Source of the DNA: a virus
Taxonomy: Duplodnaviria > Caudoviricetes
Strand: one strand, 5' to 3'
IMG/VR virus record: IMGVR_UViG_3300026493_000002
Length of the DNA stretch: 64,000 nucleotides
Below are positions 2,128-10,322 of this stretch, piece by piece. The translations under genes were made by a program, and so were the position numbers. The stretch's first letter is position 1. Each line of letters begins with the position of its first letter. The notes beneath the pieces are model-generated. The model had not been told where the DNA came from. It saw only the letters and a program-made list of their open reading frames with translations, and did no database searches.

Positions 2128-3495
2128 ATGGTCAGTCTATCATCCTTCACCAGTATCGCTGCCATTGGTGGCATCGTCGCTTTGATAAGCGCCGGCTGGT
2201 CACACGTCAAGGTAGTCTTCGCGCACCTGAGTTCGGTGCTGGTCGTTCGCGCGTCGAGCAACTACTTCCTCAAGCAGGCCATCTATTCCCACCTGCGTCG
2301 CAACTGGAGGCTTCTGCCGAGCAACGCCGCCGAGTACAAGCATCTGTGGATGCGGGTCAACGGATCGAACGACCAGAAGTGCGTACCGTTCCGAATGCCC
2401 AATACGGGCTCGGCCATCTTTGTGCGGCGGCACCAGTTCATCGTCTTCAACAACGAGGGTGATGGGAAGTTCTGGGGCCTTCGCGGCTTGGTCGATCTGG
2501 ACAAGCTGGTGGAGGACGCCGTACGCGAGTATCCGAATGCGTCACGTGGTACGAAGCGCCAATCTCAGTTCCGCGTCATTCAACTCATGGGTGACGAGAA
2601 GAGTGCCAACGGGTATTCGATGGGAACGGCGGTTGCGAAGCGGAACAGCGATGACTCGGAATCTCCTGCGGAGTCCTTGGGCAACGAACCCCAGCCGGAT
2701 ATCGACAAGCCGTTGATCTACCGACGCGAAGAGCTTCTGACCAAGGACGTGCGCGATCCATTAGCCCAGTTGTTCTACGAGCCCTACGTGTACCGTGCGA
2801 TTGAAAGCGCAGAGACGTGGTTCGACAGTGAAGAATGGTATGTGTCGCGCGGTCTGCCCTGGCGCCTCGGCTGGTTGCTGTCCGGACCGGCAGGTACTGG
2901 CAAGTCGGCACTGGTGCAGGCGATTGCTGAAAAGCTCGGCGTGCGCCTGTACATGTACAACCTCGCTACCATGAGCGATCAGGAGTTCCGCAGCGAGTGG
3001 AACAACATGACCACTCCGTGCGTGGCCTGCTTCGAGGACTTCGACAACGTGTTCGTCGGCCGTGAGAATCAGACTGCGCACAAGTCGCTGTCCTTCGACA
3101 CGATCCTGAATGCCTTGTCCGGTGTGCAAACCCGAAGCGGCGTGTTCCTGATCGTGACCACCAACCATCCCGAGAAGCTGGACAGTGCGATGGGTACTGC
3201 GCCGCGCTTCGAGGACGCAGGTGTAACGTCTGCGGTCAGCACTCGCCCGGGTCGTCTGGACGTCGAGATTCATCTGGGCCTGATGGGCGTTCCCAATCGC
3301 CTGCGCATGGCCGACAAGATGCTCAGTGACTGGCAGGACCTGCACGCCGAGGTCATGGCCATCGAAGGTGAGTACACGCCAGCCCAGTTCCAGGAAATTT
3401 GCACGCAGCGCGCGCTGGTACGCATCGCCGAAGAGCGCAAGGGCAGGTTGGCACTGGCACAGTCCGACGAGGCCGAAAGCAAAATCGCGGCGTAA
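2128..3495 (+). CDS. BCS1-like AAA+ ATPase with N-terminal membrane segment
   Basis: RGLPWRLGWLLSGPAGTGKS (Walker A in BCS1 context), ACFEDFD (Walker B), TTNHPEKLD...RPGRLD (SRH); hydrophobic N-terminus. Confidence 0.85.
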   Translation: MVSLSSFTSIAAIGGIVALISAGWSHVKVVFAHLSSVLVVRASSNYFLKQAIYSHLRRNWRLLPSNAAEYKHLWMRVNGSNDQKCVPFRMPNTGSAIFVRRHQFIVFNNEGDGKFWGLRGLVDLDKLVEDAVREYPNASRGTKRQSQFRVIQLMGDEKSANGYSMGTAVAKRNSDDSESPAESLGNEPQPDIDKPLIYRREELLTKDVRDPLAQLFYEPYVYRAIESAETWFDSEEWYVSRGLPWRLGWLLSGPAGTGKSALVQAIAEKLGVRLYMYNLATMSDQEFRSEWNNMTTPCVACFEDFDNVFVGRENQTAHKSLSFDTILNALSGVQTRSGVFLIVTTNHPEKLDSAMGTAPRFEDAGVTSAVSTRPGRLDVEIHLGLMGVPNRLRMADKMLSDWQDLHAEVMAIEGEYTPAQFQEICTQRALVRIAEERKGRLALAQSDEAESKIAA

Positions 3496-3503
3496 CGTAA
3501 TTT
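3494..3503 (+). promoter_or_regulatory. Candidate phage late-promoter motif AACGTAATTT
   Basis: Intergenic, 25 nt upstream of ATG 3529; same core found at four minus-strand sites. Confidence 0.55.
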
Positions 3504-3528
3504 GAGTCCAGTTAGTGAGGACTCAACC

Positions 3529-4041
3529 ATGACGCTACTCGATGGCACTGCGGCCTACAAGGCTAAGAAGGACACCAAGTTCAAGCAACGCAAGCACATC
3601 TTCTACGGTCGGGAGTTGACTCTCCAAGGCTACGAGGCGCTGGCGTTGAAACACTTGGTCGAGGTGATGGGAGTAAAGCCCAAGGACATTGTCACCGAGT
3701 GCGAGAACGACTTTACGAAGACGCTTGGCATTCGGTACAAGTACAACGGCGAATGGCGCACGTACATCCCTGATGCGTATGTCATTTCCAAACGGACCAT
3801 CATTGAGTGCAAGAGCATCCACACGCTCGGCCTCAGAAGCAACAAGAAGCGTGGCTGGAGCATGACGTGCGCAAAGGCACGGGCCACGCGGGAGAAGGGT
3901 TACGACATAATCCTGCTCCTCATGCGAGACGACGGAACGCGCATCAAGATGCCCAAGGGCTGGTACAACATGAAGAAGGCCCAGGTACTTGAGGCGCTTG
4001 CAGACGAGCTGGACAATTCCAAGTCTGTAAAGCTGTTCTAA
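3529..4041 (+). CDS. PD-(D/E)xK endonuclease-like protein (TnsA-N / T4 gp4-like / NCLDV-type)
   Basis: LQGYEALAL...YKYNGEWRTYIPDAYVISKRTIIECKS: PD..ExK catalytic pattern; SD gagg before ATG 3529. Confidence 0.7.
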   Translation: MTLLDGTAAYKAKKDTKFKQRKHIFYGRELTLQGYEALALKHLVEVMGVKPKDIVTECENDFTKTLGIRYKYNGEWRTYIPDAYVISKRTIIECKSIHTLGLRSNKKRGWSMTCAKARATREKGYDIILLLMRDDGTRIKMPKGWYNMKKAQVLEALADELDNSKSVKLF

Positions 4042-4045
4042 CGAA

Positions 4046-4288
4046 TTGGTCATGTGGTGGAATTCGCTTCGATGGCGAGCAGCTTGGCGACACGCTGATT
4101 CAGGGCAGCGTGGATTTGGCTGCGCGCTGGTACGCGAAGGCACAGGGGAGCTTGTGCGCTCAATCACTGCTTGGGAACTGGCGCGTGCGCTGGCCCAGGT
4201 ATCTGCGGGTTTAACTCCCGCCATGACCAACCTATTTGCAACCACTATCGGTAGACCCACAAAGTATGAAGCAGAATCATCCCGTTGA
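4046..4288 (+). CDS. Possible hypothetical protein
   Basis: Fills a ~220-nt gap between co-oriented genes; no motif, weak start. Confidence 0.3.
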   Translation: MVMWWNSLRWRAAWRHADSGQRGFGCALVREGTGELVRSITAWELARALAQVSAGLTPAMTNLFATTIGRPTKYEAESSR

Positions 4289-4637
4289 AGTTCGCAAGGT
4301 GCGCGGCATGGGTCGTGGTGTGTTCGCCACGAAGTCCTTCAAGGTCGACGACGTTATCGAAGTCTGTCCAGTGATCCTGTTCCCGCACAGCGAGAAGACG
4401 AAGCGTGACCATGACACCTATGGTTACAGCTTCCGTTGGAACAAGAACAACGTGGCGATCAGTCTCGGGTTTGGCAGCCTGTACAACCACAGCTACGAAC
4501 CCAACGCGGTTGTCGTGCAGGACCTCAAGGCACTGACGATGACCATCCATGCTCTCCGCCCTATCTCTGCGGGCGAGCAACTGTTTATCAACTACAACGG
4601 TCCTGCGGACGATAAGTCTCCCCTTTGGTTCACCTGA
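4266..4637 (+). CDS. SET-domain protein-lysine methyltransferase (minimal, vSET/bacterial type)
   Basis: GMGRGVFATKSF (GxG motif I), LGFGSLYNHSYEPNA (NHS.xPN), GEQLFINY (GEEL...Y); no post-SET cysteines. Confidence 0.9.
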   Translation: MKQNHPVEVRKVRGMGRGVFATKSFKVDDVIEVCPVILFPHSEKTKRDHDTYGYSFRWNKNNVAISLGFGSLYNHSYEPNAVVVQDLKALTMTIHALRPISAGEQLFINYNGPADDKSPLWFT

Positions 4638-4668: not shown

Positions 4669-4986
4669 ATGGCTGAGGTCAAGCCGAGCCGAAAGTTCTA
4701 CGTGGTGTTGCAGACGAGGAGCATCCGCCTGCCGCACAATCTGAAACTGGAAACAACGGCGACCACGGAAGGCATCGCAAAGAATCACGCACTCTACCAT
4801 CTGCGCAAGCATGGTCATGATGCGTTCCGTGTGACCAGGAGAGTGTTCGCTCCACACCTTACCATGCTGCGGGAGTACCTGCTCTCGGATCAAGGACATA
4901 CGTTCGTCCAGTTCGTGGACGAGGACTCAGAACTGTGGGCGCGCTCCCTGGATCTTCGCGCCTACTTGCCAAACAAACCGAGGTAA
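4669..4986 (+). CDS. Hypothetical protein
   Basis: SD gaggag before ATG 4669; in-operon spacing. Confidence 0.6.
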   Translation: MAEVKPSRKFYVVLQTRSIRLPHNLKLETTATTEGIAKNHALYHLRKHGHDAFRVTRRVFAPHLTMLREYLLSDQGHTFVQFVDEDSELWARSLDLRAYLPNKPR

Positions 4987-5586: not shown

Positions 5587-5608
5587 CTGCCCGGGCCTTT
5601 CCGGGCAG
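5587..5608 (+). terminator. Terminator-like hairpin
   Basis: ctgcccgg-gccttt-ccgggcag; same stem sequence as the hairpin at 136-163. Confidence 0.6.
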
Positions 5609-8675: not shown

Positions 8676-10322
8676 ATGAATACCACCAACCCGTCCGCTG
8701 GCGTGTATGTGACCGAACGCGACTTGTCGGAACGTATTGCCAACGCGTCCACGACCATCGGCGCCATCGTCGGTCCCTCCCAGAAGGGTCCGGTGATGGA
8801 GCGCACGTTGGTGACTTCGGTCAAGCAGTTCGTGGAAATCTTCGGGCGCCCGACTCCGCAGACTTCGCAGATGCACTACCATGCCGCGCAGTTCCTGACC
8901 GAGTCGAGTCGTCTGTACGTCACCCGCGTGGTGGCACCCGACACGCTGACTGCTGGCGCCTACCTGAGCGTGGACGACCTGAGTTCGCCGGCGCCCATCC
9001 TCAAGCTCAACAACTTCGACGACGGCACCAACCAGCCGCTCGGCAAGTACGATCCCTTCAACACCCTGGGCTTCGATCCGGCTCAGCCGGGTATCGACCG
9101 CGTGCTGGGCTTCTTCTGCGCAGCGAACCCCGGCACCTGGAACAACGAAATCTTCATCCGCGTTCGTCCCTCGACCAAGTCGGGCGTTGCCGCACCGGAT
9201 GATCCGTACCTGTTCTACGTGGACGTCTTCCTGAACTACCGCTCGCGCCGTCAGGCACCGAACGAATCGTTCCTGGTCTGCCGCGACTTCTACGTCGATG
9301 GCTTCGGTGAACAGCTCCAGATCGAAGAGGTCATCAACCGTCAGTCGAACATCATCCGCTACCGTCCGAACGAAGCCGCCCCGATCAAGGTCAAGATCCT
9401 GAACGTGGCGACCGAGTACCTGGATGGTGCAACCAACGGCTCGCGCCCGGCTGACGGCCTGGTCGTGCAGGGTTGGGAACTGTACGTCGACCCGGAACGT
9501 GTGGACGTGAACATCCTGATCCAGGGTGGTTACGAGAGCATCAACGTGCAGCAGACGATGACGACCATCGCGGAAGATCGCATGGACGCAATCGCGGTGC
9601 TGGATGTGCCTCGTGCACAGCAGGACGTCAGCGACGCCGTGTACTTCCGTCGCAACGACCTGAACATCGACAGCAGCTACGCGGCCCTGTACGGCCCCGA
9701 CCTGCTGATCTACGACGAGTACAACGACCGTGAACTGTACGTGGCGCCGTCGGGCTACGTTGCCGCCGTGATGGCGAAGACCGACAACGTCGCCGCTACG
9801 TGGTTCGCTCCCGCGGGTCTGGAGCGTGGTCTGCTCCGCATTCGTGGCCTGCGTCACGTCTACAATCAGGGTGATCGTGATGCCCTGGTGGACGCGCAGA
9901 TCAACCCGATCCGCAGCTTCCCGAAACTGGGTTCGTATGTCGTGTGGGGTGCTGACACCCTGCAGGTCATGGCATCGGCCCTCACCAACGTCAACGTCCG
10001 TCGTCTGCTCAACTTCGTGGAGAAGTCGATCCAGATTGCGGCCATCTACAAGACGTTTGAACCGAACGATGAAATCCTGTGGTCTCGCCTGACGGAAATG
10101 TGCGAACGTTTCCTCAAGCCGATCCGTGCCGGCCGTGGTGTCTACTGGTACGACGTGGTGTGCGACGAGAGCAACAACCCGCCCTCGATCCAGGCCAACG
10201 GCGACACGATTCTGGATATCTACGTCGACCCGGTGATCCCGGCGAAGCGCATCCACCTGAACGCAACCGTGACCCGTCGCGGCGCGTCGTTCACCGCGGA
10301 AGCACTGGACACCTCGAACTAA
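8676..10322 (+). CDS. Contractile tail sheath protein (T4 gp18-like)
   Basis: N-terminal SAGVYVTERDLS, FG.P; C-terminal PSG.VA, WFAPAG..RG, INPI, VWG..TL, NVRRLL, FEPND, CDE.NN sheath motifs. Confidence 0.95.
   Translation: MNTTNPSAGVYVTERDLSERIANASTTIGAIVGPSQKGPVMERTLVTSVKQFVEIFGRPTPQTSQMHYHAAQFLTESSRLYVTRVVAPDTLTAGAYLSVDDLSSPAPILKLNNFDDGTNQPLGKYDPFNTLGFDPAQPGIDRVLGFFCAANPGTWNNEIFIRVRPSTKSGVAAPDDPYLFYVDVFLNYRSRRQAPNESFLVCRDFYVDGFGEQLQIEEVINRQSNIIRYRPNEAAPIKVKILNVATEYLDGATNGSRPADGLVVQGWELYVDPERVDVNILIQGGYESINVQQTMTTIAEDRMDAIAVLDVPRAQQDVSDAVYFRRNDLNIDSSYAALYGPDLLIYDEYNDRELYVAPSGYVAAVMAKTDNVAATWFAPAGLERGLLRIRGLRHVYNQGDRDALVDAQINPIRSFPKLGSYVVWGADTLQVMASALTNVNVRRLLNFVEKSIQIAAIYKTFEPNDEILWSRLTEMCERFLKPIRAGRGVYWYDVVCDESNNPPSIQANGDTILDIYVDPVIPAKRIHLNATVTRRGASFTAEALDTSN

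Follow-up and report, generated by a model that had tools for sequence, protein, structure and literature searches.

A BCS1-type ATPase, a stand-alone DUF7487 nuclease and a minimal SET methyltransferase as probably independent neighbours in a PaBG-like jumbo phage

Organisation of the locus

The window, i.e. the whole stretch of 64,000 nucleotides analysed (IMG/VR record IMGVR_UViG_3300026493_000002), comes from the genome of an uncultured tailed phage, a PaBG/NCTB-like jumbo myovirus related to Pseudomonas phage PaBG. The product of its tail sheath gene (8676-10322) exhibits 47% identity to the sheaths of PaBG and of phage NCTB. Three real and intact genes follow each other on the + strand and encode a BCS1-type AAA ATPase of 455 aa (2128-3495), a stand-alone DUF7487 nuclease domain of the PD-(D/E)xK type of 170 aa (3529-4041) and a minimal SET-domain protein methyltransferase of 123 aa (4266-4637). 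The database gene calls shift two of the starts inward, from 3502 to 3529 for the nuclease (open reading frame 3502-4041) and from 4236 to 4266 for the SET protein (open reading frame 4236-4637). The family matches of the three proteins and of the tail sheath are far above chance. The first-pass annotation, which had recognised three near-consecutive BCS1-like, nuclease and SET genes, is borne out by Pfam matches to all three.

The nuclease and SET genes are separated by a spacer of 224 bases (4042-4265, assigned to neither strand), in which no promoter-like or terminator-like site and no remnants of lost cargo genes were found. An 80-aa open reading frame at 4046-4288 has no match in the relatives except in the near-identical L008. 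The SET gene is followed on the + strand by the gene of a 105-aa protein of unknown function (4669-4986), which lies directly 3' of SET in every relative examined. Further downstream, on the + strand, a terminator-like hairpin (5587-5608) presents a 9-bp stem with 7 G-C pairs and then a T-rich tail. Judged by its sequence, this hairpin is likely to be the end of a transcription unit holding all three genes, and no terminator-like site was found between the ATPase, nuclease and SET genes in the window. The GC content of the region, 0.58, does not stand out from the window around it, and a DNA-level search with the 2.5-kb region against 50,697 phage records gave no match.

NCBIfam and PADLOC gave no match for the nuclease and SET proteins and only generic AAA matches for the ATPase, including weak IetA/IteA matches far under the cut-offs. 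A role of the genes in a known defence system was dropped after these results.

A phage member of the BCS1/YjoB group

The ATPase matches the Pfam AAA family (PF00004) with an E value of 1.3e-15 and 58 bits (cut-off 21). Among the sequences of solved structures, its top match is yeast Bcs1 (E 2.7e-22), with Cdc48 behind (1.6e-18). The phage protein and yeast Bcs1 have in common WY.RG.P.R.G.LL.GP.G.GK, an EDxD Walker B, LNAL.GV and TTNHPEKLD, and the motifs GPAGTGKS, EDFD and RPGR are kept across 41 homologues. By these motifs, the Walker A, the Walker B and the second region of homology with the arginine-finger region are intact.

Residues 2-20 are hydrophobic (Kyte-Doolittle 1.97), as in an N-terminal membrane anchor. 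The predicted structure (pLDDT 85) presents a helix at residues 5-38, aligned from Bcs1 residue 11. Over the span 2-434, the model aligns with full-length Bcs1 for 320-362 residues with Z of 19-20, and 303 residues align with B. subtilis YjoB (Z 19), whereas just ~205-225 residues align with AAA proteins that are not of the BCS1 type. The N-terminal membrane helix, the middle domain and the AAA domain all align with those of mitochondrial Bcs1 (yeast, mouse) and of YjoB. The fold of the model points to a Bcs1-specific middle domain, an assignment made on the predicted structure only, as Pfam BCS1_N does not match this domain at E <= 0.01. The phage ATPase differs from Bcs1 and YjoB by this missing Pfam match, by a disordered insert at residues 162-184 and by its sequence, which is ~20% identical over the full length. 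Unlike that of mitochondrial Bcs1, its substrate cannot be the Rieske protein.

We take the ATPase to be an orthologue, encoded by a phage, of the BCS1/YjoB group of AAA ATPases. It may be active at the inner membrane and use ATP as a chaperone or translocase of folded proteins, a role already put forward for jumbo phages. Iyer et al. (2021, PMC7824862) have described BCS1 orthologues in each of the three groups of jumbo phages, and some of the jumbo-phage relatives are annotated as mitochondrial chaperone. The phage BCS1-type ATPases are a model in which translocases of folded proteins can readily be studied outside mitochondria.

A bare nuclease domain from an apparently mobile family

The nuclease matches Pfam DUF7487 (PF24308; E 1.8e-14, 54.6 bits, cut-off 27) over the profile positions 121-220 only, which correspond to the C-terminal half of the model. 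Across 18 homologues, residues E36, P81-D82, E93 and K95 do not vary; they are those of the QGYE and PD...E.K signature quoted in the first-pass annotation, which is thereby confirmed. A sequence search against solved structures gave no match and Foldseek against the PDB returned only weak matches to cap-snatching endonucleases, while a wide structural search with the predicted structure (pLDDT 87) led to TnsA and Vsr. In fold, the protein is next to the PaBG putative homing endonuclease, followed by TnsA (Z 7.3) and Vsr (Z 7.2), with further matches to Hjc, I-Bth0305I (Z 5.4) and tRNA splicing endonucleases at Z of 5 to 6.1. These Z values are modest, but all top matches are of the restriction-endonuclease-like fold, which is the fold predicted for the window protein. 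In the same way as PaBG_00174, to which it is 53.5% identical, the Vsr/TnsA-like nucleases and I-Bth0305I, it combines this predicted fold with the catalytic E...PD...ExK residues.

The DUF7487 family comprises 3287 representative clusters, mostly with the domain C-terminal in proteins of 200-530 aa. Most relatives of the window nuclease carry 70-380 extra N-terminal residues, and of the 10 long members scanned, 4 have treble-clef zinc fingers ahead of the domain. Unlike these members with their N-terminal extensions, the window nuclease is the bare domain. Elsewhere, the gene layouts suggest that the family behaves like mobile homing endonucleases. Two copies each are present in PaBG and in the complete genomes G001 and G004, at scattered positions, one G001 copy carries an in-frame stop and one PaBG paralogue is named putative homing endonuclease. 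In Dickeya phage JA11, an unannotated nuclease frame of 379 aa has a fragment annotated as DNA repair helicase on either side. On these data, DUF7487 can be seen as the domain that provides the nuclease in a large family of modular, apparently mobile endonucleases; giant viruses have distant relatives of this fold.

There is some chance, well short of even, that the window nuclease is itself a still-active free-standing homing endonuclease, which would cut nuclease-less relatives at this position and copy itself, possibly with its flanks, so that the adjacency of the three genes would be a by-product of selfish spread. The behaviour of the family described above is in line with this account, and so is the variable gene content around the nuclease in the relatives, which is typical of endonuclease-driven flank exchange. 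However, the sporadic presence and insertion seen for the other members (JA11; PaBG, G001, G004) is not seen here: the gene is present in all of the relatives sampled, and its place among the other genes is unchanged in the six and in PaBG, a stability within its lineage that distinguishes it from sporadic homing endonucleases. Moreover, it consists of the nuclease domain alone, without the N-terminal DNA-binding regions of most members and without a DNA-binding region for a long target site, and its divergence matches that of its neighbours. Considering that it is fixed in position and diverges at its neighbours' pace, the nuclease is therefore read as vertically kept. Such a catalytic domain, taken from a large family of modular nucleases, would probably be a metal-dependent DNA endonuclease and may serve phage DNA transactions or competition with other phages. 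In PaBG as well as in L003 and L004, a DNA methylase and an asparagine synthase are encoded downstream of the nuclease, which also speaks for vertical descent.

A minimal SET protein closer to bacteria and phages than to chloroviruses

The SET protein matches Pfam SET (PF00856; E 2.6e-16, 60.4 bits, cut-off 22.4) over the profile positions 1-105, with the motifs GRGVFA, LYNHS..PNA and INY conserved. Its best matches among solved structures are S. pombe Set7 (3.4e-14) and, second, PBCV-1 vSET (1.3e-12), with which its cofactor and catalytic motifs (GxG, NHS, catalytic Tyr) align. Residues G16, G18, N74, H75 and Y110 are invariant in 40 homologues and S76 is kept in at least 90% of them. Like PBCV-1 vSET (A612L) and Set7, the window protein is a single domain of ~120 residues without pre-SET and post-SET zinc clusters; unlike vSET, it presents a conserved C-terminal PLWF tail, common to the bacterial and phage group.

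There are 1416 homologues of similar length. Proteins encoded on bacterial chromosomes (Oscillatoria, Saprospiraceae, Bacillus) are 45-52% identical and those from the phage lineage 54-66% identical, compared to ~33% for chlorovirus vSET, which scores 51 bits against 100-165 bits for the bacterial and phage proteins. The closest relatives are thus not the chlorovirus or giant-virus proteins that would be expected for a vSET orthologue. In the same direction, the single giant-virus sequence falls in the other half of a SET tree, a partial tree with few well-supported branches from which true vSET and the eukaryotic SETs were left out. By its motifs, the protein is a minimal SET lysine methyltransferase, predicted to be catalytically intact, of a type common in bacteria and large phages. 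Minimal bacterial SET proteins have been reviewed (PMC3980110), and by the present survey SET methyltransferases occur widely among the large tailed phages, with at least 108 viral stretches in 42 groups. IMG/VR contigs of 317-321 kb carrying a SET gene were considered as chloroviruses and rejected, their SET protein scoring only 47 bits to vSET; a tail-sheath homologue within 5 kb of the SET gene identifies them as phages.

The first-pass annotation had associated the three families with eukaryotes and nucleocytoplasmic large DNA viruses and had seen in the region an island with this flavour. The existence of such members is correct. Eukaryotic Bcs1 for the ATPase and S. pombe Set7 with chlorovirus vSET for the SET protein are the top solved-structure matches, Klosneuvirus, Marseillevirus and iridovirus proteins have the nuclease fold in common at 24-28% identity, a real but distant relationship, and distant relatives of the SET protein and of the ATPase are contained in giant-virus metagenome bins. 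However, solved structures are biased towards eukaryotes, and for every gene the phage or bacterial relatives are much closer. Large viral-type metagenome contigs abound in members of the ATPase family at 35-45% identity, compared to 21-26% for the giant-virus bins, and the identities given above for the SET protein and for the PaBG nuclease tell the same. The uniform GC content, the position of the giant-virus SET in the partial tree and the inheritance of the genes along the phage lineage, with neighbour-like divergence, also argue against a foreign block. An island from giant viruses or eukaryotes, drawn from a gene pool common to giant viruses and jumbo phages, is consequently very improbable, and the locus no longer stands as a case of eukaryote-like genes in a phage: the three families are ordinary in large phages and would have been joined here by gene loss.

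Gene order in the lineage and distribution outside it

The order ATPase, nuclease, SET on a single strand is the same in the window and in six relatives, i.e. in every relative spanning the genes, including five more distant ones with proteins 57-82% identical. The identities to the window proteins for ATPase, nuclease and SET are 59, 65 and 63% in L003 and 79, 64 and 66% in L004. The compact layout is restricted to the window and its 97% identical sibling L008, where the gaps measure 33 bases between ATPase and nuclease and 224 bases between nuclease and SET. In the other relatives, the first gap holds 5 genes (L004, L009) or 7 genes (L003) and the second one 2 (L003, L004, L009), 3 (L011) or 4 genes (L012), which are mostly of unknown function and differ between relatives. 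The three genes stand side by side because the window phage is without the genes that part them in its relatives. As the most divergent relatives all have this cargo, its loss in the branch of the window is the simpler account.

Outside the lineage, the three genes were found together in none of 148 viral loci. In 80 IMG/VR loci that contain SET and form 42 groups at 70% identity, neither partner is present within 10 kb. Among 65 ATPase loci, the nuclease is present in one and SET in another, without any locus combining the two, and the 3 viral loci with the nuclease do not have all three genes. The combination is likewise absent from the named and complete phage genomes checked, these absence calls resting on a loose first filter: PaBG and NCTB gave no ATPase match and no SET match, and in each of the complete IMG/VR genomes G001, G004, G005 and G006 one or more of the three genes are missing. 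For each of the families, there are many phages that carry it without the other two.

A joint protein-modification/remodelling module, as first suggested for these genes, would have, for example, the ATPase unfold or translocate the SET target and the nuclease cut the DNA released. The kept order and strand, together with a terminator-like site found only after the three genes, would suit such a module. The 5-7 and 2-4 varying genes interposed in the relatives, the lack of the combination outside one lineage and the separate occurrence of each family do not, so that the module is largely refuted by this distribution and we give it very little credence. This is essentially the outcome, ordinary bacterial or phage clades and no co-occurrence elsewhere, that the first-pass annotation had named as counting against its own reading.

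Therefore, the three genes are most probably independent accessory genes of a PaBG-like jumbo myovirus, co-inherited only via the gene order of the lineage and made neighbours by missing cargo genes. Against full independence, the conserved order and strand and the uninterrupted stretch up to the hairpin have to be considered, and the genes may be co-expressed and have some functional link.

The SET gene and its downstream partner

The only tight partner of SET is the 105-aa gene directly downstream, which adjoins it in L003, L004, L008, L009, L011, L012 and L013 (tblastn). Its product, which belongs to no Pfam or PHROG family, is identical in L008 and 37-47% identical in the other six, more distant loci. 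Neighbour clustering in the 42 groups gave no SET-linked family beyond the lineage of the window.

The SET enzyme would methylate a host or phage protein, perhaps in concert with its constant downstream neighbour, the 105-aa protein. Chlorovirus vSET silences host chromatin; the bacterial host has no histones and the target must therefore differ from that of vSET. With the SET enzymes of archaea, chlamydiae and chloroviruses as a guide, the best guess is a DNA-binding nucleoid protein. We suggest, as a rather unlikely speculation, that the two proteins form a phage protein-lysine methylation system modifying a nucleoid protein, either of the host or the HU-like protein of the phage, during infection. 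If true, it would be the bacterial-virus counterpart of the silencing by vSET. The gene of the phage HU-like protein is located ~4 kb upstream.

The three genes and their host phage

Three co-directional open reading frames were found in the window at 2128-3495, 3502-4041 and 4236-4637; in the database gene calls, the second begins at 3529 and encodes 170 aa, and the third begins at 4266 and encodes 123 aa. Their products match, above the curated cut-offs, the Pfam families AAA (PF00004, E = 1.3e-15), DUF7487 (PF24308, E = 1.8e-14) and SET (PF00856, E = 2.6e-16), respectively. The three-gene observation of the first-pass annotation is thereby confirmed, and the families that it named are the correct ones, with Bcs1 and vSET as solved relatives. 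The GC content is about 58-60% throughout the window and shows no shift at 2-5 kb. The tail sheath gene (8676-10322) shares 47% identity with its counterparts in phage NCTB and Pseudomonas phage PaBG, and the recorded carrier of the window's own proteins is a 233 kb contig. The host genome is, therefore, that of an uncultured PaBG-like jumbo myovirus.

The BCS1-like ATPase

Yeast Bcs1 is the solved structure whose sequence matches the ATPase best (E = 2.7e-22), and the motifs WY.RG.P.R.G.LL.GP.G.GK, EDxD (Walker B), LNAL.GV and TTNHPEKLD are common to both; the Pfam BCS1_N model gave no match to this protein. Residues 2-20 are strongly hydrophobic. The AlphaFold model (41 homologues in the alignment, pLDDT 85) aligns with the complete mouse and yeast Bcs1 proteins (320-362 residues, Z 19-20), the aligned stretch beginning at the N-terminal helix and running through the whole AAA domain, and with B. 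subtilis YjoB (Z 19), whereas with Cdc48, FtsH and the proteasomal ATPases the alignment is limited to the AAA part of about 220 residues.

Homologues with 35-45% identity are carried by many contigs of 130-460 kb, and weaker matches are present in 172 named phages, some already annotated as mitochondrial chaperone. Among the relatives at 65 IMG/VR loci, giant-virus bins reach only 21-26% identity. BCS1 orthologues have been described in all three major jumbo-phage groups, with a proposed role in membrane-proximal assembly (Iyer et al. 2021, PMC7824862). Considering this report together with the homologues on many large contigs, the ATPase gene is a new member of an already described phage family.

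An AbiEii-like nucleotidyltransferase is encoded at 1222-1803 of the window (Pfam, 26 bits; PADLOC AbiEii, 6e-6), and homologues with 67% identity to it lie upstream of the ATPase gene in the lineage loci L004 and L009.

The DUF7487 nuclease

The PD-(D/E)xK signature spotted by the first-pass annotation is borne out by residues E36, P81-D82, E93 and K95, invariant in the 18 close homologues of the nuclease. In the viral structure library, the protein nearest to the nuclease model (pLDDT 87) is a "putative homing endonuclease" of PaBG, followed by unnamed and metagenomic phage proteins and, in third place, by the Klosneuvirus, Marseillevirus and iridovirus nucleases (24-28% identity). The giant-virus relatives thus exist, as had been proposed, but they are not close, the nearest named protein being PaBG_00174 with 53.5% identity. 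Of the solved structures, TnsA (Z 7.3) is nearest to the model, closely followed by Vsr (Z 7.2); the homing endonuclease I-Bth0305I scores Z 5.4.

A DUF7487 profile search retrieved 3287 representative clusters (770 at E <= 1e-10), in most of which the nuclease domain forms the C-terminal portion of a protein 200-530 aa long; treble-clef zinc fingers precede it in 4 of the 10 long members scanned. PaBG and the complete IMG/VR genomes G001 and G004 each have two copies of the family, at unrelated positions. One of the two in G001 (IMGVR_UViG_3300045974_000132, 286 kb), at 94312-94752, contains an in-frame TGA, which fits the decay of a mobile endonuclease gene. In Dickeya phage JA11 (record 129450-130586; L005 3338-4474), JA11_155 and JA11_156, each annotated as a putative DNA repair helicase, flank an unannotated open frame of 379 aa on the opposite strand, which ends in the DUF7487 nuclease domain; the arrangement has the appearance of a helicase gene interrupted by a mobile endonuclease gene. 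Given the unrelated positions, the in-frame stop and the apparent helicase split in JA11, members of this family behave like mobile elements.

Active homing of the window nuclease would accord with this behaviour; yet the protein is a bare nuclease domain, unlike the longer members of the family, its relative position is the same in every relative, none of which is without a copy, and its divergence tracks that of the neighbouring genes (identity to the window by tblastn for ATPase, nuclease and SET of 59, 65 and 63% in L003 and of 79, 64 and 66% in L004). We therefore lean towards vertical retention, and consider active homing less likely.

An inverted repeat (GAGTCC-9 nt-GGACTC, 3503-3524), located after the ATPase stop codon and before the nuclease start codon, overlaps the nuclease gene's ribosome-binding site (GAGGA) and could limit translation of this gene.

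The minimal SET protein

The best solved relatives of the SET protein are S. pombe Set7 (3.4e-14) and PBCV-1 vSET (1.3e-12, about 33% identity). It has 1416 matches of similar length in the collection of metagenomes and genomes, and throughout this group the cofactor motifs, the catalytic motifs and a PLWF tail at the C-terminus are conserved. Homologues whose contig also encodes the nuclease share 54-66% identity, and bacterial chromosomal ones (Oscillatoria, Saprospiraceae, Bacillus) 45-52%; bacterial SET proteins have been reviewed (PMC3980110). The gene is found in at least 108 viral stretches of IMG/VR, and the named phages carrying it include Stenotrophomonas phages Moby and Ps15 and Vibrio phage GR11A.

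In a quick maximum-likelihood tree, weakly supported overall, the window protein falls inside its lineage clade, beside which stand the phage sequences GR11A and L022 and then a bacterial cluster; the one giant-virus-bin sequence falls in the opposite half. Giant viruses and eukaryotes are thinly sampled in this tree.

When the 80 IMG/VR stretches retrieved, the named-phage loci and the lineage loci were grouped at 70% identity, a tail sheath gene lay within 5 kb of SET in 6 of the 42 groups, namely those of L026, L051, L053, L060, L022 and the window itself. Several large myovirus lineages have, then, SET near the tail module.

The SET protein of L023 (IMGVR_UViG_643886033_000001, 39.5 kb) is almost identical in the tree to P0107, a protein named for Bacillus tropicus; a prophage-like element may therefore carry the minimal SET gene of the Bacillus cereus group.

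Gene order and co-occurrence of the three genes

The window was compared by tblastn with the contigs on which its closest homologues are encoded. Throughout these lineage contigs the genes follow one another in the order ATPase, nuclease, SET, but at variable spacing. The ATPase and nuclease genes are separated by 33 bases in the window and in its 97% identical sibling L008, by five genes in L004 and L009 and by seven in L003; between nuclease and SET there are 224 bases (window, L008), two genes (L003, L004, L009), three (L011) or four (L012). The interposed genes are mostly without assigned function, one being thioredoxin-like. Since every more distant relative has such cargo, its loss in the branch of the window is the simpler account of the compact layout; no cargo remnants were found in the nuclease-SET spacer of the window. 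No terminator-like sites were found between the three genes of the window, and a good one follows them at 5587-5608. From these sites, the three genes are likely to be co-transcribed, in a unit that would also include unrelated neighbours.

Outside the lineage, neither ATPase nor nuclease was present within 10 kb of SET at 80 IMG/VR loci, and neither ATPase nor SET was found within 10 kb at 3 loci with the nuclease. At the 65 loci with the ATPase, one has the nuclease, one has SET and none has both. PaBG has its two nuclease copies and no match to SET or ATPase, and NCTB, searched for these two genes, matched neither. JA11 and GR7B have only the nuclease, GR11A and Moby only SET, and one or more of the three genes are missing from each of the complete IMG/VR genomes G001, G004, G005 and G006. 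All three genes thus do not co-occur beyond the lineage in the sets examined.

The suggestion of a eukaryote- or giant-virus-flavoured island is, therefore, unsupported, phage or bacterial homologues being closer for each gene. All three stand essentially among ordinary bacterial and phage sequences, on a thin phylogenetic sampling of giant viruses and eukaryotes, the nuclease family having distant giant-virus members. The variable spacing in relatives and the absence of the trio from other phages in the loci and genomes compared likewise speak against a joint module.

The only gene always directly adjoining SET encodes a protein of about 100 aa, a tight linkage seen within the lineage. In the window, it is a 105-aa protein of no known family (4669-4986), directly downstream of SET as in all relatives examined, identical in L008 and with 37-47% identity in six more distant loci (tblastn).

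About 4 kb upstream of SET, L008 encodes a 207-aa protein (2909-3532, its end corresponding to about position 111 of the window), whose C-terminal 85 residues match the HU/IHF DNA-binding fold (PF00216, 27 bits) after an N-terminal extension of 120 residues; it is a predicted phage-encoded nucleoid-type protein.
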